From NCBI GenBank assembly GCA_016784085.1, contig JADHVH010000002.1, forward strand, positions 1-33,627: 33,627 nt of DNA, read 5' to 3'. The first letter of the stretch is position 1; each line of letters starts with the position of its first letter. Made by a program: the position numbers and the translations under genes. Of this stretch, positions 14,863 through 33,627 are shown in pieces. The notes beneath the pieces were generated by a model. It ran no database searches. It worked only from the letters and a program-made list of their open reading frames with translations, and was not told the DNA's origin. The stretch is from Candidatus Pacearchaeota archaeon. GTDB taxonomy: Archaea; Nanobdellota; Nanobdellia; Pacearchaeales; GW2011-AR1.

Positions 14863-14866
14863 AGTT

Positions 14867-15100
14867 TTATCTTCCCCCACAACCGCCACCACAACTTGAT
14901 CCTGTTGTTGCTCCACAATTAGATGATCCACAGTTATTTCCTGCAGTACATCCTCCTTGGGCTGCGTTAGGACAGCTTCCTGATTCACAAGACCCAGTAT
15001 AAGTATTATCCGTAGCATCTACACTTGTTATTGCTGCTGTTGCTAAACCTACTAGAACTAACAAGCCTACCATTATTGCTACTGTTACTAAAGTTTTCAT
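14867..15100 (-). CDS. exported Cys/Gly-rich peptide (77 aa, 8 Cys in the last 40 residues)
   Basis: Signal/TM segment MKTLVTVAIMVGLLVLVGLATAA, then GSCESGSCPNAAQGGCTAGNNCGSSNCGATTGSSCGGGCGGR. A GGAGGT Shine-Dalgarno-like box lies at 15110-15115 (plus-strand ACCTCC), 9 nt upstream of the ATG. Confidence 0.55.
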   Translation of the reverse strand: MKTLVTVAIMVGLLVLVGLATAAITSVDATDNTYTGSCESGSCPNAAQGGCTAGNNCGSSNCGATTGSSCGGGCGGR

Positions 15101-15118
15101 ATTTGTTTTTACCTCCTT

Positions 15119-16687: not shown

Positions 16688-16861
16688 TTAACAACCACCA
16701 ACCATTCCACCATAACCACTTGCAGCTTGTTGTGCAGCAGCTTGACTAGCAGATAAAGTACTTTGAGCTGTTGCTGCAGATCCTTGAAAGAATACTACAT
16801 ATAAAACTAATATTCCTAAAATTCCAATAAGGCTCCACAATGCAATTTGTCTATTATCCAT
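16688..16861 (-). CDS. 57-aa single-pass membrane peptide ending in GGMVGGC
   Basis: The ATG at 16861 has a GGAGG box at 16872-16876. Sequence: MDNRQIALWSLIGILGILVLYVVFFQGSAATAQSTLSASQAAAQQAASGYGGMVGGC. The longer track start (16942) would overlap the upstream gene. Confidence 0.5.
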   Translation of the reverse strand: MDNRQIALWSLIGILGILVLYVVFFQGSAATAQSTLSASQAAAQQAASGYGGMVGGC

Positions 16862-16883
16862 ATTTATTTTTCCTCCGTTATTA

Positions 16884-27897: not shown

Positions 27898-27990
27898 TTG
27901 TTAACCTCCGTTTTAATTTAATTAATATAATTGTAAAAAGCACTAAGAATACAATAAAATAATGAAGATTTGATTTAAAAGGTTGTTGGT

Positions 27991-28836
27991 TTAGAAAGAA
28001 TCTAGAGGACTTTGAATATTTATTAATTTTGGTGAAGAAATATGTGTGTATATTAAAGTTGTTTCAGGGGATTTATGCCCAAGAATTGCCTGAACATTTG
28101 AAAGAGAAAAACCATTTTCAATTAAATGCGTTGCAAAGGAATGCCTTAATGTGTGAGTGTGGATTTCCTTCCAATTTTTTAAATTTGCTGTTTTAGAAGA
28201 TTTTTTAATTATTTGTTGAATAGTTCTTATTGAATATTTTTTGTTTCTATCACTTTTAAAAAGAAAATCATTTTCAATTAGATGTTCTTTGTTTATTAGT
28301 TTCTCTATGTTTTTAATTATTTTAGTTGGAATAATAATTAATCTATCTTTTCCACCCTTTCCATTCCTAACATAACCATAATTATCTTCTAATTTTAAAT
28401 CTTTTAATTTAAGATTAATTAATTCACTAACTCTTAATCCACTTCCATACATAAATTCTATCATTAATTTATGTTTTTCATTTGAAATAGAATTTATCAA
28501 TTTTTCAATCTCTTTTTTAGATAAAACAATAGGTAATCTTCTTGGAACTTTTGAATATTTAATATTAATCCAAATTCTTTTTTCTAAAACCTCTTCAAAA
28601 AGAAATCTTATAGCCATGTGGTATGTGTTTAGAGTATTTCCAGCTTTATTTTCATTAGCCAATTTTTCCAAAAATAATCTAACATCTTTTTTAGATATTT
28701 TTCCTAGTTCTTTATTGCAATATTTCAAAAATTTATTAATGCAATAAATATATGTCTTTGCAGTTCTTGGACTTAATCGTCTTCTTTTGCATTTATTAGT
28801 CACTGCTTTTTCTATATCTATTGGATAGTAGGACAT
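27991..28836 (-). CDS. tyrosine site-specific recombinase, Xer/XerA-like
   Basis: Catalytic residues are readable: GLRVSE (Arg), HTLRHSFATH (H-x-x-R), LGHKS (His) and TLIYTH (Tyr). The 281-aa size matches the archaeal Xer type. Confidence 0.88.
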   Translation of the reverse strand: MSYYPIDIEKAVTNKCKRRRLSPRTAKTYIYCINKFLKYCNKELGKISKKDVRLFLEKLANENKAGNTLNTYHMAIRFLFEEVLEKRIWINIKYSKVPRRLPIVLSKKEIEKLINSISNEKHKLMIEFMYGSGLRVSELINLKLKDLKLEDNYGYVRNGKGGKDRLIIIPTKIIKNIEKLINKEHLIENDFLFKSDRNKKYSIRTIQQIIKKSSKTANLKNWKEIHTHTLRHSFATHLIENGFSLSNVQAILGHKSPETTLIYTHISSPKLINIQSPLDSF

Positions 28837-28944
28837 AAATTATTTATATAATATATAATTTTTATATATAAGTTTTAATTTTAAAATGAAACAAGGAGCA
28901 AATAAAAGCAAAAAATTAGCACAATCATCATTTAAATACAACAG

Positions 28945-29151
28945 AATTAAGGCTCAAAAAAGCAAGATTTAGTGCTTTTCGTTAAAAGACTGTTATATTC
29001 AATTTTTGAGAATGCCTACAAGTTAGAATTAAGACAAAGAAATAGGAAATAATATTTTTTCTCCCACCCTATAGGAGAGACGCGCGCAGTTTTCGAATTC
29101 TCGAAAACTAGATAGCAAAAACTTCGTTTTTAGATTTATAGGGGGATTTCC
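28945..29151 (+). repeat. intergenic repeat block, copy 1
   Basis: Collinear exact matches to the reverse complement of 32542-32737, listed in the first finding. Confidence 0.75.
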
Positions 29152-29230
29152 TTAGTCCTTCGGACAATTTGTAAAACTCAGAGATTTTTTGAGATAGTTT
29201 TATAAATATCTTATTCAATATACTTATAAC

Positions 29231-32200
29231 ATGAAAAGAGGAATAACATTTATTTTTTTATTGAGTATAATAATTTTATCTAGTTCGGTTATTGTATCTG
29301 CTTCATGGTGGGATAAAATTACTGGAAATGTAGTTTCAGATTCTTGTATTGATTCTGATGGAGGATTAAATTATTATATTAAAGGGAATGCAACAGGATT
29401 TCTCTTTTCGGATAGTAATGAAATTGGAACAAGAGAAGACAAATGTGCTCAAAAAAGATTTGAGAATGGAGAATTTGTTGGTTGGAATTATGTTCAATCA
29501 TGCGAAGAAAATTGCGGAGTATCAGAAGCATTCTGTCATGAACTAAACTCAGGAAAGACTACTGCTAGTAGTTTAGAGTTTGGGTGTCCAGGAGCGTGCG
29601 AAGATGGAGCATGCTTACAGGAAATAGACATTTCTTGCACAGATAGCGATAAAAGTCTTTCAGATGATATTGGAGCAGGATTAAATTATTATAAAAAAGG
29701 AACTGTCACAATTTGGGTAAATAATCAAATTTCAGAAACAAAAACCGATTACTGCAATGGGAATCAATTAGTAGAGTTTGTTTGCGATTCCAATAAAATA
29801 GAATCTGGTGATTATGATTGTCCTAATGGTTGCAAAGAAGGGAAATGCTTAGAACCTTCTCAAAGTTGTACAGATACAGATAATGGCATCAATATTTACA
29901 AAAAAGGTTATAGAACAAATTGGAATAATGCATATGCAGATTACAAAATTAAGCAAGGAGATTATTGTATAAAAAATCCAACCATAACAAACAAAGGCAA
30001 TGCAATTGCAGATGAAGCAAAAAAGGTTTCTTCTTGTCAGGGAGAAGGATGTTATATTATTGAATATACCTGTCAAGAAGATTTAAGCAGTGCGAGTATT
30101 GGTTTTCCTTGTCCTAATGGATGCACAGATGGAATTTGTGTGGAAAGTAATGATAATAATAACTTAAAAGATTTATCAAAATTTTCTTCAAAGAATGCTT
30201 TTTTGGTTTCAGATGAAAATTGGAGAAAAGTTCTAACTATGATACCTTTGGCAGTTTGGACCAATACAGACAAGACAATCACCAAATATCCTCTTTTAAT
30301 ATATCATAAAGAAAATAATGCATTTGATATTGATTCAATTTATTATTTTTTTGAACAATTTAATACAAATAAAATAACCCACTTTGAAAATCTGCCCACA
30401 GACTTAGATTCTTTACTTCAGAGTTCTTTTAATATAGAACAAAAGCAAAATATGCTTGATTTTTGGGCAGAATACAAAGATGTTGTTTATGTTGAAAATA
30501 ACTATGAACTATCACTCTTGGCATCATCTTATGCTTCATTAATCAATGCTCCTTTGATAATCCAAGGTTACAATGATAATATTGATTTATTACAAAAAAA
30601 TGTTATCTGTGTTGGGAACCCAACACCTATTTGTGATGAGCAATATAATCTAGAAGAATTACAAGATAAGTATTTGGAAATGACGCAAACAAATAAGATA
30701 ATCCTTATTAACTCGGGCGATTGGGATATAACTCTCTCAACAACTACTCCATTTGAAACAGATAAATGTAATGAAGATATATTTGAGTTATATAGTAATA
30801 CCTCCTTAGCTTCTCAAATATTGGACAGTGCTAAGCACGAACTAATCTTAAGTGCGAACTCTCAAGATTATGTCTCCATTGATCAGTTTCTTGAAAACAA
30901 AATTGAAAGTTTAGGGATTGATGCAAATTATTTAACTATCATGTCCAGTCCTGACGCAATTCAAATGAGTAAAAATGAAAAAGATGATATTTGGTTTGAA
31001 GTAGACAATTCAATTTATGGCCGTTTAGGAGATGAGACTTTTCAAAAGCTATCTGTAGGAAGAATTTTTGGAGTTTCGGTTTCTGATGTTTCTTCCTATG
31101 TTTCTAGAGTTTTATTTTATCCTGATTTAGCTCTATCAAGTAAATTTGCAATGCTGGTTCCACATGGTCAAAGCAGTCCAGAGGAAGCAATTGGGGGCAA
31201 AATGCAACTTAAACCTAATGAAGAGTTATTAGAGTCTCTAGGTATGAAATCAGGAAGTATCTATTTGGACGAGACAAATTATGATTTATTCCCTTTACAA
31301 GTATTAGAAGACAAGATGATAATAAGCTATTCGGGACATGGGGCCCCTTCTGGATTGCAAGATGGAATTGGCACATTTTCAATTAGATCAGAAGATATTT
31401 GGCTTTCACCATCTTTAATGCTTGTAGAAGGATGTTTAACTTGTGCATATGAAGGGATATGGCCTGGAAATAAAAGGGAAGATTTATTTTGCACAAACAT
31501 TTTAAGAAGAGGAAGTTTGGGTTATATTGGAGCTGTTGATGAGTCAGGATCTACAAATTCTCTTTCAAAATATCTAATTGAAAATTTAGTAGAAGGAAAT
31601 TCTTTTGGAGAAATGATTAAAAAGATAAAACATTTTGAATCGTCTGTTATAGGGGGCTGTCGAGAGGGACAAAATGTTTATGCGCCCTTTTGTGAGCCTT
31701 ATTATATTTTAATTGGAGATCATACCATAAATCCAGGGTATAAATATCCTGAAATTGATACAACTGAAATAACTAATGAGATAAATAATCTTAATATAGT
31801 CTCTACAATTACCATGCCTCAATCAAGTCAACTAGAACAGTGGAGTAACTCATTTTACAAAATTCCCCACGGAGCAAATCTAATAAAAAGTTATATTGAG
31901 ATAGATCCAAATGATGATTCAGGAAATTCACTAAGAAGCGAAGGAATATTTTATTTTGATGTTGATTTGTCTGGAGAGTATAATTTCACTCCAATTAAAG
32001 CAGAGATGATAGATTCAAAGCTAAATGTTATTGAACTACCTCTTTCTCAAGTAGAAGAAGGTATTTTTGATTTTGTAAATCTTGATATTCCTAAAAAAAG
32101 ATTTGTTCTGAGCGTAGAGCCGATATATGACCAAAATACTGGGGCATATAAGATATTTGTGTCTTCCTCTTTTGGCGGAGAAATGACAATTGATGATTTT

Positions 32201-32506
32201 AGTCCAAATTATTCTTATAAAATTTACTATGAAACAGATGGAAAAATACAACCAAATATTGCAGAAAAACAAACAAAAGATAATAGTTGCATTGGTTGTT
32301 TTATTGATAATAAATGCTATCCATTTAATCATAGAAAAAGTGGAGAATTTTGTTCAATTAATGAAGGAGAATTTATTTCTCAATTAGAAGCAGATTCTAC
32401 TTGTGAAAATAATTTTGAATGTCTTAGTAATATCTGTATTGACAATAAATGTGTAGATACAAGTATTTGGAATAAATTTATTTCTTGGTTTAGAAATCTC
32501 TTCTGA
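29231..32506 (+). CDS. large secreted protein: three Cys-rich N-terminal modules, a clan-CD (gingipain/C25-like) cysteine-peptidase-like core and a Cys-rich C-terminus
   Basis: Signal peptide MKRGITFIFLLSIIILSSSVIVSA. Three modules span C39-C128, C136-C206 and C213-C303, each starting SC(I/T)D(S/T)D..(L/I)N(Y/I)Y.KG and ending CP.(G/A)C.(D/E)G.C. YSGHG (H703) and VEGCLTC (C735) are 32 residues apart, against 33 in gingipain as I remember it. Confidence 0.7.
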   Translation: MKRGITFIFLLSIIILSSSVIVSASWWDKITGNVVSDSCIDSDGGLNYYIKGNATGFLFSDSNEIGTREDKCAQKRFENGEFVGWNYVQSCEENCGVSEAFCHELNSGKTTASSLEFGCPGACEDGACLQEIDISCTDSDKSLSDDIGAGLNYYKKGTVTIWVNNQISETKTDYCNGNQLVEFVCDSNKIESGDYDCPNGCKEGKCLEPSQSCTDTDNGINIYKKGYRTNWNNAYADYKIKQGDYCIKNPTITNKGNAIADEAKKVSSCQGEGCYIIEYTCQEDLSSASIGFPCPNGCTDGICVESNDNNNLKDLSKFSSKNAFLVSDENWRKVLTMIPLAVWTNTDKTITKYPLLIYHKENNAFDIDSIYYFFEQFNTNKITHFENLPTDLDSLLQSSFNIEQKQNMLDFWAEYKDVVYVENNYELSLLASSYASLINAPLIIQGYNDNIDLLQKNVICVGNPTPICDEQYNLEELQDKYLEMTQTNKIILINSGDWDITLSTTTPFETDKCNEDIFELYSNTSLASQILDSAKHELILSANSQDYVSIDQFLENKIESLGIDANYLTIMSSPDAIQMSKNEKDDIWFEVDNSIYGRLGDETFQKLSVGRIFGVSVSDVSSYVSRVLFYPDLALSSKFAMLVPHGQSSPEEAIGGKMQLKPNEELLESLGMKSGSIYLDETNYDLFPLQVLEDKMIISYSGHGAPSGLQDGIGTFSIRSEDIWLSPSLMLVEGCLTCAYEGIWPGNKREDLFCTNILRRGSLGYIGAVDESGSTNSLSKYLIENLVEGNSFGEMIKKIKHFESSVIGGCREGQNVYAPFCEPYYILIGDHTINPGYKYPEIDTTEITNEINNLNIVSTITMPQSSQLEQWSNSFYKIPHGANLIKSYIEIDPNDDSGNSLRSEGIFYFDVDLSGEYNFTPIKAEMIDSKLNVIELPLSQVEEGIFDFVNLDIPKKRFVLSVEPIYDQNTGAYKIFVSSSFGGEMTIDDFSPNYSYKIYYETDGKIQPNIAEKQTKDNSCIGCFIDNKCYPFNHRKSGEFCSINEGEFISQLEADSTCENNFECLSNICIDNKCVDTSIWNKFISWFRNLF

Positions 32507-32541
32507 TTAAAATCTTCTTTTAAGAAAAGAAGCAAAAAGAC

Positions 32542-32779
32542 GGAAATCCCCATTTTCTTTTTTTAGAAAAAAGAAACAAAAAAAGCGCGCGTCTCTCTAA
32601 TACATAGCCCACCCAAAAAATATTATTTCAAAATCATACAAACGGCATTCTCAAAAACTTTGATTTTTTGCCTTCGGCATCGTTGCACTAAAAATCAAGT
32701 CCTCCAAGTATTCGGACGAAACTAACAGGGCTTAATTGCAATAAATTTGAAGTCCTAAAAATAGAAGGGGCGAACTCAT
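32542..32779 (-). repeat. intergenic repeat block, copy 2 (inverted relative to copies 1 and 3)
   Basis: Its left part matches copy 1 in reverse complement. Its right part (32743-32779) matches 33366-33432 in reverse complement. Confidence 0.75.
32554..32576 (+). terminator. T-rich hairpin downstream of the large gene (TTTCTTTTTT-TAG-AAAAAAGAAA)
   Basis: Perfect 10-bp stem with a 3-nt loop, 48 nt after the stop codon, flanked by T-runs. Confidence 0.35.
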
Positions 32780-33321
32780 AAGATTTCTTTTTTCAGATTT
32801 TCTAATAACTCAGGGTAAAGAGATTTTCCCTTTTCTGTTTTGAATCTTTTTGGAAATTCTCTTTCCCACAAACTAATTACTTCTTGATAGCTTTCGGATT
32901 TATATTTTTCTTGAACATGTTCAACACATAATTTGCTCAAACTATCTGCATCAACGATAATTGCCTCGTCATCATTTTGAGAATCATGCTTATCTGCTGC
33001 CTTAATTAATCGGATTACTGTATTGATATCGGATTCTTCAAATTCCATTTTGCCTAAAACTTCTGTGACTAATCTTTGTGTATTTTCATTTGCTTTTTCT
33101 TCAAATTTCAGCATTTCTTGAAAATCCACTTTTCCTTTAGGCAAAATGTTAGACCATCCGATATCATGTATATAGGCAGCAGTAATCAATAAATCTAAGT
33201 CTTCTCTGCCCTCACCTAATACCTTAACCCATTTAACCACCCTTAACGCATGATTCCAATCACCCGCTCGGCAATTATCTAAATAGGGTTTGATTATCGT
33301 AATTAGTTTGTTTTCATCCAT
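32776..33321 (-). CDS. HD-domain metal-dependent phosphohydrolase
   Basis: Contains HALRVVKWVKVL ... LLITAAYIHDIGW (the H...HD signature) and a later ADKHD. Confidence 0.8.
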   Translation of the reverse strand: MDENKLITIIKPYLDNCRAGDWNHALRVVKWVKVLGEGREDLDLLITAAYIHDIGWSNILPKGKVDFQEMLKFEEKANENTQRLVTEVLGKMEFEESDINTVIRLIKAADKHDSQNDDEAIIVDADSLSKLCVEHVQEKYKSESYQEVISLWEREFPKRFKTEKGKSLYPELLENLKKEIL

Positions 33322-33365
33322 ATAACAATTAGTTTGTAGAAAATCTTAATAAATCTTACTATAAA

Positions 33366-33540
33366 ATGAGTTCGCCCTCAATGTGTTCTCATTATTGTCG
33401 CTTTGCTCCTTGATAGAACGGACTTCAAATTTACTTCTTCGGCTTCGCCTCGACCACGCTGCGCTCTCGCCTATCGGCTCGGGGCAATTAACAGCGATTA
33501 GACGAAATCGAGAAAAGGGCTAATACATTTTGAAGTAGGG
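33366..33540 (+). repeat. intergenic repeat block, copy 3, interrupted by a GC-rich insert
   Basis: ATGAGTTCGCCC (33366-33377), GGACTTCAAATTT (33420-33432) and GCAATTAA (33484-33491) are collinear with the reverse complement of copy 2. An internal inverted 8-mer, ACTTCAAA at 33422-33429, pairs with TTTGAAGT near 33529-33536. Confidence 0.6.
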
Positions 33541-33577
33541 CAAAACTTTTATAATCTCATAGTTTTTCAATAATATT

Positions 33578-33627
33578 ATGGCAGTAAAAATCACTTATTT
33601 TGTTCATGGAACGACAACTGACAATCA
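33578..33627 (+). CDS. 5' end of an unidentified ORF running off the window (MAVKITYFVHGTTTDN...)
   Basis: The ATG at 33578 is open to the window end. Only 16 codons are visible. There is a faint resemblance to the N-terminus of histidine-phosphatase-fold proteins, but the Arg of the RHG motif is absent. Confidence 0.25.
   Translation, partial: MAVKITYFVHGTTTDN

Follow-up and report, generated by a model that had tools for sequence, protein, structure and literature searches.

In the window (the whole 33,627-nucleotide stretch of Candidatus Pacearchaeota archaeon contig JADHVH010000002.1 that was analysed), we propose with moderate confidence that the genes upstream of a tyrosine recombinase gene form an integron-like, Xer-associated cassette array, in which we infer both the role of the recombinase and the mechanism. 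It resembles the bacterial integron and appears to be an archaeal counterpart of it that has not been described before. If this is true, it would be a functionally integron-like capture platform built on an Xer recombinase and not on IntI.

The recombinase and the co-oriented scaffold

The recombinase gene lies at the 3' end of the array, and its sense strand is the scaffold strand. Its 281-aa product carries Phage_integrase and SAM-like N domains (Pfam), has XerA structures 5hxy and 4a8e as top PDB matches, scores 219.4 bits against NCBIfam NF040815 XerA_Arch (cut-off, 220) and matches the integron-integrase profile TIGR02249 in two pieces only, with the IntI-specific segment skipped. Hundreds of homologues, 60-72% identical, were found in Pacearchaeota/Nanoarchaeota. 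Judged by its sequence it is a widely conserved XerA orthologue, and it may simply be a chromosome-dimer resolvase beside a variable island.

The true repeated scaffold upstream of this gene is co-oriented, on the minus (recombinase-sense) strand. Its components are a 28-nt junction motif, ATTGnnnnTAA-nnnCTG-TTAnnTnCnCC, C-GAA-G mini-hairpins and a hairpin whose loop is AGTGCAACG. Read on that strand, each unit runs from the junction motif through a linker that holds one to three C-GAA-G mini-hairpins, then AGT, private 5' arms, the cargo gene or genes (in either orientation, with their own promoter) and private 3' arms to the next junction motif, where the unit repeats. The array ends in a conserved terminal motif ~140 nt upstream of xerA. 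The recombinase and scaffold features are:

27991..28836, minus strand: XerA-type tyrosine recombinase gene
28976..29003, minus strand: terminal junction motif ATTGAATATAA CAGTCT TTTAACGAAAA, final site ahead of the recombinase promoter
32658..32742, minus strand: linker B with junction motif
32715-32742, minus strand: linker B junction motif ATTGCAATTAA GCCCTG TTAGTTTCGTC
32699-32717, minus strand: linker B hairpin GTCCGAATACTTGGAGGAC, after the junction motif
32660-32698, minus strand: linker B hairpin TTGATTTTT-AGTGCAACGATGCCGAAGGC-AAAAAATCAA, including mini-hairpin GCCGAAGGC
33437..33508, minus strand: linker A with junction motif
33481-33508, minus strand: linker A junction motif ATTTCGTCTAA TCGCTG TTAATTGCCCC
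33448-33487, minus strand: linker A core TTGCCCCGAGCCGATAGGCGAGAGCGCAGCGTGGTCGAGG
33441-33449, minus strand: linker A mini-hairpin GGCGAAGCC, then GAAGAAGT

The terminal motif, whose position upstream of xerA is conserved in an alignment of six genomes, is the 5' portion of an element of 71 nt (28932-29002) that folds into a hairpin with the stem TTGAATATAACAG/CTGTTGTATTTAA. In two other assemblies the contig ends at 28995, within this motif; repeats can account for contig breaks at the array. Upstream of the recombinases, the scaffold strand has 18 occurrences of the junction motif, compared with 1, 1 and 2 for the other strand and downstream, and 13 of the AGTGCAACG loop, compared with 0, 0 and 0. 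The scaffold motifs are missing from the remaining 28 kb of the window and from ~66 kb of sequence on the downstream side of the recombinases, and the DNA analysed thus gives no support to the genome-wide intergenic repeat family that a sequence-only reading had offered as one of three options. The symmetry of the junction motif is weak (4.8-6 of 11 arm positions) and cross-site controls are equally good, so its "dif-like" layout is suggestive only.

The window and all five other orthologue loci examined (L102, L104, L105, L106 and L107) show the same architecture upstream of xerA. Linker B is 90% identical to linkers of L102, L106 and L107, and the linker A core 94-96% identical to L102 and L104, despite recombinases that are only ~70% identical. 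Moreover, in the complete Pacearchaeota genome L005 an array lies beside a 36%-identical recombinase paralogue, and in L046 a third recombinase adjoins a copy of the HD phosphohydrolase gene. The genes downstream of xerA are core genes that vary between genomes. Typical accessory functions make up the cargo (GNAT acetyltransferases, APH, Fic, NYN, D12 methylase, peptidases, UDG, HD), whose small genes differ from array to array, and no viral-contig matches were found. The synteny comparison that had been suggested showed different cassette content in every relative examined. The array may well be a conserved feature of this Pacearchaeota lineage, with the window showing its recombinase-proximal end.

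Private arms around each cargo

Three intergenic blocks had been read as homologous copies of one element in alternating orientation. The exact matches listed for them are all in place. Block 1 (28945-29151) and block 2 (32542-32737, reverse-complemented) share a collinear chain of them that totals 67 nt, compared with a mean of 20.5 +/- 6.4 (maximum 47) in 1000 dinucleotide-preserving shuffles; for the block 2/3 pair (AAATTTGAAGTCC, GGGCGAACTCAT) the total is 25 nt, where shuffles gave 0.8 +/- 2.3 (maximum 14). The alternating homology was not borne out: the minus-strand blocks match eight other loci in one orientation only, and all 34 BLAST matches between the window blocks and the arrays of these loci (E<1e-3) were co-oriented, with 0 opposite. 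The inverted matches do not stem from inverted copies of one common element but are arms of cassette-specific inverted repeats. The surface-protein gene is enclosed by a private inverted repeat in four parts, of which block 1 forms one arm and block 2 the other, and the block 2/3 matches are private arms around the HD gene. The short matches AATTAAG and TTTAGTGC are present, but as evidence of element homology they fail, being short matches in other modules that fall in the junction motif, a small-ORF stop codon and a hairpin loop. An 11-bp pair thought to bracket the recombinase gene is at chance level (reached in 123 of 1000 shuffles). The cassette features are:

29003..29151, minus strand: surface-protein cassette 3' arms (block 1)
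29003-29016, minus strand: 3' arm GGCATTCTCAAAAA
29046-29060, minus strand: 3' arm AAAAAATATTATTTC
29075-29087, minus strand: 3' arm GCGCGCGTCTCTC
29142-29151, minus strand: 3' arm GGAAATCCCC
29088-29109: hairpin within this 3' arm region
29118-29130 and 29155-29165, minus strand: mini-hairpins AAAACGAAGTTTT and GTCCGAAGGAC at these arms
~29199-29208: TATA-like box TTTATAAATA of cargo 1, inside the arms
29231..32506, plus strand: cargo 1, antisense to the scaffold, encoding a secreted Cys-rich protein of 1091 aa that has a Peptidase_C25-like domain
32542..32657, minus strand: surface-protein cassette 5' arms (left part of block 2)
32644-32657, minus strand: 5' arm TTTTTGAGAATGCC, then GTTTGTAT
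32615-32629, minus strand: 5' arm GAAATAATATTTTTT
32585-32597, minus strand: 5' arm GAGAGACGCGCGC
32542-32551, minus strand: 5' arm GGGGATTTCC
32554-32576 and 32514-32532: hairpins at these arms, the second terminator-like, at the 3' end of the surface-protein gene
32739..33436, minus strand: HD cassette core, 698 bp, with 5' module start GTTCTATC and 3' spacer CTTCTATTTTTA
33420-33432 / 32743-32755: HD outer arms AAATTTGAAGTCC / GGACTTCAAATTT
33366-33377 / 32768-32779: HD inner arms GGGCGAACTCAT / ATGAGTTCGCCC, the latter overlapping the stop codon
33331-33353 / 32788-32810: HD third arm pair, imperfect
32776-33321, minus strand: HD phosphohydrolase ORF, sense to the scaffold
33509..33627, minus strand: third-cassette region, probable 3' arms and cargo start
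33509-33521, minus strand: probable third-cassette 3' arm AGCCCTTTTCTCG, a candidate by context, its partner arm lying outside the window

Perfect inverted repeats of at least 11 bp join consecutive intergenic regions in 18 of 51 cases upstream of the recombinases and in 0 of 18 downstream, with 6 of 51 in the direct-repeat control. A search in which TAA was not imposed found the context AGT-arm...arm'-ATTG-nnnn-TAA(C/T) common to 16 units; the arm-ATTT-CGTC-TAA of the third cassette, whose gene starts at 33580 (plus strand) and runs past the end of the window, fits their pattern. The module CTAAAAACGAAGTTTTTGCTATCT...CTGCGCGCGT of the surface-protein 3' arms occurs again in L102 in the same orientation, and the GAGAGACGCGCGC helix shows compensatory variants in L102 units.

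At least five different neighbourhoods (L005, L009/L038, L013/L037, L039 and L041/L061) contain the HD core with the same ends, and HD homologues at 76% identity or less lack its flanks. Its DNA is 89% identical between the window and L005, whose recombinases share 36% identity. The upstream partner of the core is linker A or linker B and the downstream partners are different left arms of the junction; in L104, linker A is directly joined to the arm TTTTTTGAGAATGCC, and the window has the HD core and linker B between the two. Partners are exchanged exactly at the private-stem bases, so recombination solely within the 6-nt spacer does not explain the exchange. As the array starts at the recombinase gene, its content differs in relatives and the HD cassette recurs, excisable integron-like cassettes fit best among the three options first put forward; the composite-MITE option fails, since neither common terminal repeats nor a target duplication is present.

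Folding, exchange and alternative readings

In the integron-like reading, the directly repeated junction motifs would serve site-specific recombination by which the array gains, loses and swaps cassettes, with the adjacent Xer-type recombinase as the putative catalyst. No product of such recombination was seen, whether as an excised circle, a clean empty site or a strain polymorphism at a junction. The scaffold would work as folded single-stranded DNA, in which the private arms could zip both cassette ends together and bring the flanking sites side by side.

A possible though clearly less probable alternative is a hypervariable island of structured intergenic repeats (REP/BIME-like or foldback) in which the neighbouring recombinase is uninvolved: shuffling would come from homologous recombination between conserved linkers and replication slippage across hairpins, and the place of xerA next to the island would reflect no more than the island's location at a fixed chromosomal landmark, e.g. 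a dimer-resolution site. The housekeeping type of this conserved XerA is consistent with it, and so are the linkers, which are direct repeats of 50-100 nt at up to 96% identity, the chimeric hairpins with mismatched stems (L105 7458, L005 8214), which resemble crossovers in conserved loops, and the HD unit of L009, found close to ribosomal-protein genes at a place where the 7 kb downstream hold no recombinase. Against this stand three different recombinases (36-38% mutual identity) that abut arrays or an HD unit, an array end that is always the conserved terminal motif on the promoter side of xerA, and stem-base exchange points that share only ~4 nt, too short for homologous recombination.

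The sites probably act as folded single-stranded DNA, to judge from their pairing patterns. In the AGTGCAACG hairpin, pairing in the outer stem reaches 94%, with compensatory change in 4 of 9 pairs and a score attained by 0 of 500 shuffles, and the scaffold strand carries 42 C-GAA-G triloop hairpins, the other strand 3. Mini-hairpins of the d(GCGAAGC) type, which are marks of single-stranded-DNA sites, melt at 76.5 C as DNA, compared with only 39 C for the related RNA octamer r(GCGAAAGC), whose DNA form melts at 76.5 C (PMC13037366). Compensatory change is present in arms and hairpins, and the evidence for strand-specific wobble in the arms is thin (5 G-T versus 0 A-C in collinear helices).

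Conserved hairpin loops, covarying stems, linker cores better conserved than neighbouring proteins and the few non-Watson-Crick arm pairs, G-U-compatible on one strand, would also suit an RNA-level system, in which the scaffold strand is transcribed, the linkers are small structured RNAs or processing signals, and the private arms pair in a long transcript and loop out each gene for processing or insulation. We consider this unlikely: Rfam gave no match even at E<=1 to 10, single-sequence folds were no stabler than shuffles, and the 42 triloops, set against a single GNRA tetraloop (GAAA), are exceptionally stable in DNA, not RNA. Cargo genes, moreover, lie in either orientation with their own promoters; those of both cargo genes are inside the arms, which therefore lie outside the mRNAs.

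Shufflon- or inverton-like segments, in which the recombinase flips each gene between its inverted arms, would account for inverted repeats around every gene beside a tyrosine recombinase and for both cargo orientations across arrays, but are very improbable, as the arms are private to each cassette and offer no common binding site, the HD gene faces the same way with respect to the asymmetric scaffold in all contexts, and promoters inside the segments would make inversion no expression switch.

Comparison with known systems

CTX-phi is an IMEX element that integrates at dif as a folded single strand. Like such elements, the integron-like array would exploit an Xer recombinase on a substrate proposed to be folded single-stranded DNA, with tandem accumulation beside one chromosomal site; by analogy it may also be likened to XerS/difSL, whose site adjoins the recombinase gene. 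Unlike them, its cargo consists of single accessory genes and not phage genomes, and its terminal motif is only a candidate dimer-resolution site.

The pdif/dif modules of Acinetobacter plasmids (XerC/XerD) are likewise discrete accessory-gene modules that have short Xer-type sites at their boundaries and occur in many contexts, but their sites are inverted around each module and share a common consensus (PMC6449649, PMC13141974). A housekeeping Xer recombinase is implicated in both. In the Pacearchaeota array, however, the junction motifs are direct repeats and the inverted repeats private, and the array is chromosomal, archaeal and beside xerA, with a single XerA.

The likeness to integrons includes a tyrosine recombinase at one end of a co-oriented array of short accessory-gene cassettes, hairpin-forming sites between cassettes that are defined by structure more than sequence, a distinct conserved site adjoining the recombinase gene, a folding strand that is the recombinase-sense strand, and likely folding as single-stranded DNA. 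Given the conserved AAC...GTT of these sites, a recombinase at the array end whose sense strand is the folded one, as with attC bottom strands, and the integrons already reported in Archaea (Ghaly et al. 2022, PMC9668308), a canonical integron or attC cluster might be considered, yet we give it very little credence. Archaeal IntIs retain the IntI-specific domain (PMC9668308), an insertion that the XerA-type recombinase of the window lacks. The private inverted arms that additionally clasp the cargo and the 28-nt junction motif, with its 11-6-11 layout, have no attC counterpart; the linkers are made of C-GAA-G mini-hairpins, and cargo orientation is mixed, with genes bearing their own promoters. 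Finally, archaeal integrons have been found in only ~1% of genomes (PMC9668308), whereas the Pacearchaeota array is not sporadic and stands at every orthologue locus examined.

Recombinase and array setting

The window is AT-rich (GC 29.7%) and archaeal, encoding a diphthamide synthase and a TrmB regulator, and its close relatives are annotated as Pacearchaeota or Nanoarchaeota (DPANN archaea). The array region takes up the final 4.7 kb and starts at the gene of a tyrosine recombinase.

Elements of the array region
27991-28836, minus strand: tyrosine recombinase, 281 aa, XerA-type
29003-28976, minus strand: terminal junction variant, ATTGAATATAA CAGTCT TTTAACGAAAA, found at the equivalent position upstream of xerA in six genomes
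29003-29151: 3' arms of the surface-protein cassette, complements of its 5' arms
32657 down to 32542, minus strand: 5' arms of the surface-protein cassette, TTTTTGAGAATGCC, GAAATAATATTTTTT, GAGAGACGCGCGC and GGGGATTTCC
32742-32715, minus strand: junction motif, in linker B
33508-33481, minus strand: junction motif, in linker A

The best match of the recombinase was NF040815, at 219.4 bits and thus just under the cut-off of 220, and its closest solved structures are the XerA proteins 5hxy and 4a8e. TIGR02249 matched it in two stretches (profile 4-183 and 238-304) with the insertion skipped, reaching 190.9 bits against a cut-off of 265; the enzyme also aligns to IntI4 (2a3v) in two stretches and to the XerA structures in one. 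We rejected an integron integrase as its identity because the IntI-specific segment is absent and the best solved relatives are XerA. The enzyme is a member of a large, well-conserved Pacearchaeota family of this type.

We compared five orthologue loci, whose recombinases are 63-71% identical to that of the window. All five carry such an array upstream of the recombinase, each with different small accessory genes. This cargo includes GNAT acetyltransferases, an aminoglycoside phosphotransferase, Fic, NYN, a D12 methylase and peptidases. Downstream of the recombinase lie core genes, different between genomes. Inverted repeats of 11 bp or more, without mismatch, link one intergenic region to the next in 18 of 51 cases upstream and in 0 of 18 downstream, and the other 28 kb of the window hold no scaffold elements. 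Linkage extends to other recombinases: the array of L005 (CP061211.1, a complete Pacearchaeota genome) ends at one 36% identical to the window's, and at locus L046 a copy of the HD phosphohydrolase gene adjoins a third. The main rival explanation, which we consider plausible, takes the arrays as an island of structured repeats independent of any recombinase; the linkage to different recombinases speaks against it, and the HD unit of locus L009, which lies away from any recombinase, speaks for it.

Two apparent long intergenic regions of the window, GC-richer and free of scaffold elements (14863-15118 and 16688-16883, minus strand), seem to contain unlisted small ORFs that would encode Cys/Gly-rich or membrane peptides. 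Contigs from other assemblies of the same or a near-identical strain (ERZ24794647, ERZ24794648, ERR13319637) end in the array, at 28995, 29115/29142 and 33543, and a contig of the L102 strain (L103) begins at a repeated GGGTGGTCGGGGG motif. Such ends may reflect assembly breaks at repeats or real heterogeneity; as evidence of strain variation we judged them weak, since at least one coincides with an internal repeat. GC skew was uninformative as a terminus marker, being dominated by gene orientation, and a search of IMG/VR contigs for signs of viral origin gave no match to two linker motifs.

Cassettes and their private arms

The sequence-only reading had described three homologous intergenic blocks (28945-29151, 32542-32779 and 33366-33432) of alternating orientation. 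Every exact match that it listed is present, and the matching exceeds chance as estimated from 1000 dinucleotide shuffles: block 1 and the reverse complement of block 2 share 67 collinear nt (shuffles 20.5 ± 6.4, maximum 47), and the two matches between blocks 2 and 3 total 25 nt (shuffles 0.8 ± 2.3). From match to match the spacer lengths of blocks 1 and 2 differ by 22, 0, 15, 3 and 21 nt, and the blocks are therefore no remnants of coding sequence. The proposed alternation did not survive: when the three blocks, taken on the minus strand, were compared by BLAST (E<1e-3) with the arrays of eight other loci, 34 of 34 matches ran in the recombinase sense and none in the opposite one. The only inverted component is the private arm pair of each cassette, and the blocks themselves do not alternate. 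An 11-bp inverted pair said to bracket the recombinase gene is attributable to chance, as 123 of the 1000 shuffles reach it.

The HD unit outlined such a cassette most clearly. Homologues of the HD protein at 82-93% identity are found on contigs with quite different neighbours, and in all of them the DNA homology to the window spans 33436-32739 and ends there, from an outer 5' arm, AAATTTGAAGTCC, to an outer 3' arm, GGACTTCAAATTT, followed by ATTG. Flanking repeats are lacking around homologues at or below 76% identity and around all those of CPR bacteria or other DPANN archaea. Because the homology stops at these two positions and the more distant homologues have no such flanks, the HD gene forms, on sequence comparison, a discrete unit of 698 bp enclosed between the halves of a private bipartite inverted repeat; a third, imperfect arm pair extends into the end of the ORF. 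As a separate observation, the HD phosphohydrolase (181 aa; 32776-33321, minus strand) has homologues 56-62% identical in many CPR bacteria (Patescibacteria, Saccharibacteria, Minisyncoccia) and DPANN archaea, an identity unusually high across domains that would be compatible with cross-domain transfer.

The HD core is present in at least five contexts. Its DNA is 89% identical in the window and L005, two loci with nothing else in common and with recombinases at 36% identity. The upstream neighbour of the core is linker A (33437-33508 in the window) in the window and L005, and linker B (32658-32742) in L009 and L013, while at the orthologue locus L104 linker A is directly joined to the arm TTTTTTGAGAATGCC where the window has the HD core and linker B. 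The upstream homology between the window and L005 starts at the ...GCTG/TTAA border of the junction motif, and XerA is known to cleave at the borders of its own 6-nt spacer (PMC3646895). Further exchange points fall precisely on the bases of the private stem, a position that a simple spacer crossover does not explain.

The surface-protein cassette, with its gene for a 1091-aa protein, is built in the same way, and the matches between blocks 1 and 2 are its 5' and 3' arms. The context of its 5' flank, ...AAAG-T(arm)GTTTGTAT..., and that of its 3' flank, ...(arm')-ATTG-AATA-TAAC..., are those of every other unit. L005 has a dozen consecutive long, GC-richer intergenic regions with the same modules, and other genes are bracketed there likewise by arms of wholly different sequence, such as GGGAGAAAGGGC/GCCCTTTCTCCC and TTTTTTTGGGCAAAAT/ATTTTGCCCAAAAAAA.

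These properties speak against the invertible and the MITE readings among those first offered. Invertible cassettes of the shufflon or inverton kind do not fit arms that differ in every unit or an HD orientation that is constant in six contexts. A MITE-flanked or composite transposon is at odds with terminal repeats that are private and with flanks, AGT and ATTG, that form no target duplication; the arrays contain no transposase.

A G-rich motif, GGGTGGG in the window (32605-32612 and 29064-29071, minus strand) and GGGGCGGGTGGTCGGGGG in L102 (7629-8076 and 9490-10000), lies on the scaffold strand in direct orientation at both flanks of antisense-type cassettes, interrupts the inverted repeat locally and may have G-quadruplex potential. 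The N-terminal third of the 1091-aa protein (29350-30145, plus strand) comprises about three diverged Cys-rich repeat copies, followed by a Peptidase_C25-like domain; 46-nt DNA repeats in the gene lie at 29575, 29809 and 30100, and also at 29350/29665.

Scaffold modules and their folding

Three conserved, oriented components lie between the cassettes: a junction motif, C-GAA-G mini-hairpins and the AGTGCAACG hairpin. The 28-nt junction motif directly follows each 3' arm, with the consensus ATTgaannTAA nnnCTG TTAnnTnCnCC. Upstream of the recombinases, 18 copies of it lie on the scaffold strand (the recombinase sense, minus in the window) and one on the other, against 1 and 2 downstream. Counts of the C-GAA-G triloop mini-hairpins were 42 against 3 upstream and 3 against 3 downstream, and all 13 copies of the asymmetric-loop AGTGCAACG hairpin are upstream and on the scaffold strand. 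The outer stem of this hairpin is 94% paired, with changes on both sides in 4 of 9 pairs, a covariation reached by 0 of 500 shuffles. In arrays of the L005 type, 40-100 nt of inserted sequence that forms a hairpin stand between TAAC and CTGTTA, and the paired segments of the insert covary (GGA/TCC, GCC/GGC, GCG/CGC). Conservation of the linker cores is striking: 53 nt of linker A, at 33448-33500 in the window, show 94-96% identity between genomes with XerA proteins only ~70% identical.

The junction motif is weakly symmetric. The terminal motif has an 11-6-11 layout whose arms match at 4-8 of 11 positions, and dif-like palindromy was rejected because this symmetry is no better than in cross-site controls; no 11-6-11 palindrome is common to the unit ends.

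Two chimeric AGTGCAACG hairpins (L105 7436-7505; L005 8192-8261) combine 5' and 3' stem arms of different types into a mismatched stem and look like crossovers inside the conserved loop. At L005 2076, the AGTGCAACG loop runs straight into a TAACATC...GAAGT half-site, the two joined at the AGT that both contain. Between the recombinase promoter and the terminal motif lies a 27-codon ORF, MKQGANKSKKLAQSSFKYNRIKAQKSKI (28886-28969, plus strand), whose stop codon falls within the TTTAGTGC match of block 1; L102 and L104 retain its core KLAQS(S/L)(F/S)K, in part by way of synonymous changes, and L105-L107 do not. The ORF may represent a tiny gene or simply conserved DNA.

Next, we considered whether the modules act as RNA or DNA. 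Rfam 15 gave no match over the whole window at the gathering score and no credible one at permissive thresholds (E<=10 in 27900-33627, E<=1 in the L005 array); ARAGORN found no tRNAs, and folding blocks 1 and 2 singly as RNA, for both strands, gave structures that did not surpass those of shuffles. Structured RNA genes were rejected on these grounds. A bulge-helix-bulge splicing or circularisation motif does not fit the geometry (a 42-nt insert opposite a 12-nt insert), and a strand-specific wobble was not significant (5 G-T against 0 A-C in true helices, 9 against 4 overall); by strict criteria almost all helices are perfect. Changes in the L009 HD unit are G-U-compatible and prompted the idea of 5'/3' UTR pairing in the HD mRNA, which we discarded since other units have their gene antisense to the scaffold and the promoters are inside the arms. 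The arms are not mRNA features, because both cargo-gene promoters lie within them and cargo occurs in either orientation.

Hairpins of the C-GAA-G type are extraordinarily stable as DNA: the melting temperature is 76.5 C for d(GCGAAGC) but only 39 C for r(GCGAAAGC), the RNA that was tested. Such hairpins are known in origins and promoters of single-stranded DNA (PMC13037366). The arrays are almost devoid of GNRA tetraloops, with a single GAAA tetraloop. Given this DNA stability, the near absence of GNRA tetraloops and the exclusion of mRNA features, we favour a scaffold strand that would fold as single-stranded DNA.

Proposed exchange mechanism and known systems

We infer a mechanism that would join integron-like logic with Xer/IMEX-like enzymology. 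The directly repeated junction motifs would be the crossover sites of the adjacent Xer-type recombinase, and the terminal motif beside xerA its entry site, or possibly the dimer-resolution site itself. Once the scaffold strand is single-stranded, the private arms of each cassette would pair and loop out the cargo, bringing the two flanking junction motifs and the mini-hairpin linkers close together and favouring excision as a circle, in which the arms would form a long stem presenting the site at its tip.

The wider reading is a lineage-wide cassette-capture platform of Pacearchaeota (DPANN), the integron principle reinvented on a Xer recombinase. The 28-nt sites would be the crossovers, mini-hairpin arrays and the private stem would juxtapose the flanking sites, and cassettes such as HD would move between distantly related archaea, perhaps also between archaea and CPR bacteria. 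Taken jointly with the site, folding and transfer steps, we put this forward tentatively, as possible but somewhat short of an even chance. DPANN genomes are tiny and their acquisition of accessory genes is poorly understood, and a conserved recombinase-linked cassette array would constitute a dedicated gene-exchange locus. If true, it would extend structure-guided single-stranded-DNA recombination beyond IntI/attC and CTX-phi, and a housekeeping-type XerA, or its paralogues, would be able to support a system of this kind. For finding arrays and their mobile gene pool in metagenomes, the 28-nt junction motif and the AGTGCAACG hairpin offer simple markers. In the literature we found no description of cassette-private stems, this junction motif or xerA-adjacent arrays in DPANN.

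The hallmark of integrons is an integrase with an IntI-specific additional domain around patch III, and their attC sites are hairpins of 57-141 nt, R''(RYYYAAC)-L''...L'-R'(GTTRRRY), with extrahelical bases. The array logic is common to both systems, with co-oriented sites arrayed beside a recombinase gene and a distinct proximal site (cf. attI), but integrons need IntI and attC, and the window recombinase is missing the IntI-specific domain. The long-form linkers of L005 fold as TAACA-bulge-L''...L'-TGTTA over 65-110 nt, with AAC/GTT conserved and covarying L pairs; R'' and L'', however, are direct and not inverted half-sites, and the window has the short 28-nt form. Cassette-private stems have no precedent in integrons and suggest a testable way of joining distant sites. 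Archaeal integrons have been found in only about 1% of archaeal genomes (PMC9668308).

In XerA/dif systems a single, genome-unique 28-bp dif, with two 11-bp inverted arms and a 6-bp spacer, lies at the terminus. The terminal motif beside xerA has the 11-6-11 layout and is conserved in six genomes, with arms that match at only 4-8 of 11 positions. Finally, Acinetobacter pdif modules also rely on Xer, but each of them is flanked by consensus sites in inverted orientation. Here the junction motifs are direct repeats throughout (18 copies on one strand, 1 on the opposite one) and the inverted repeats are private to each cassette.
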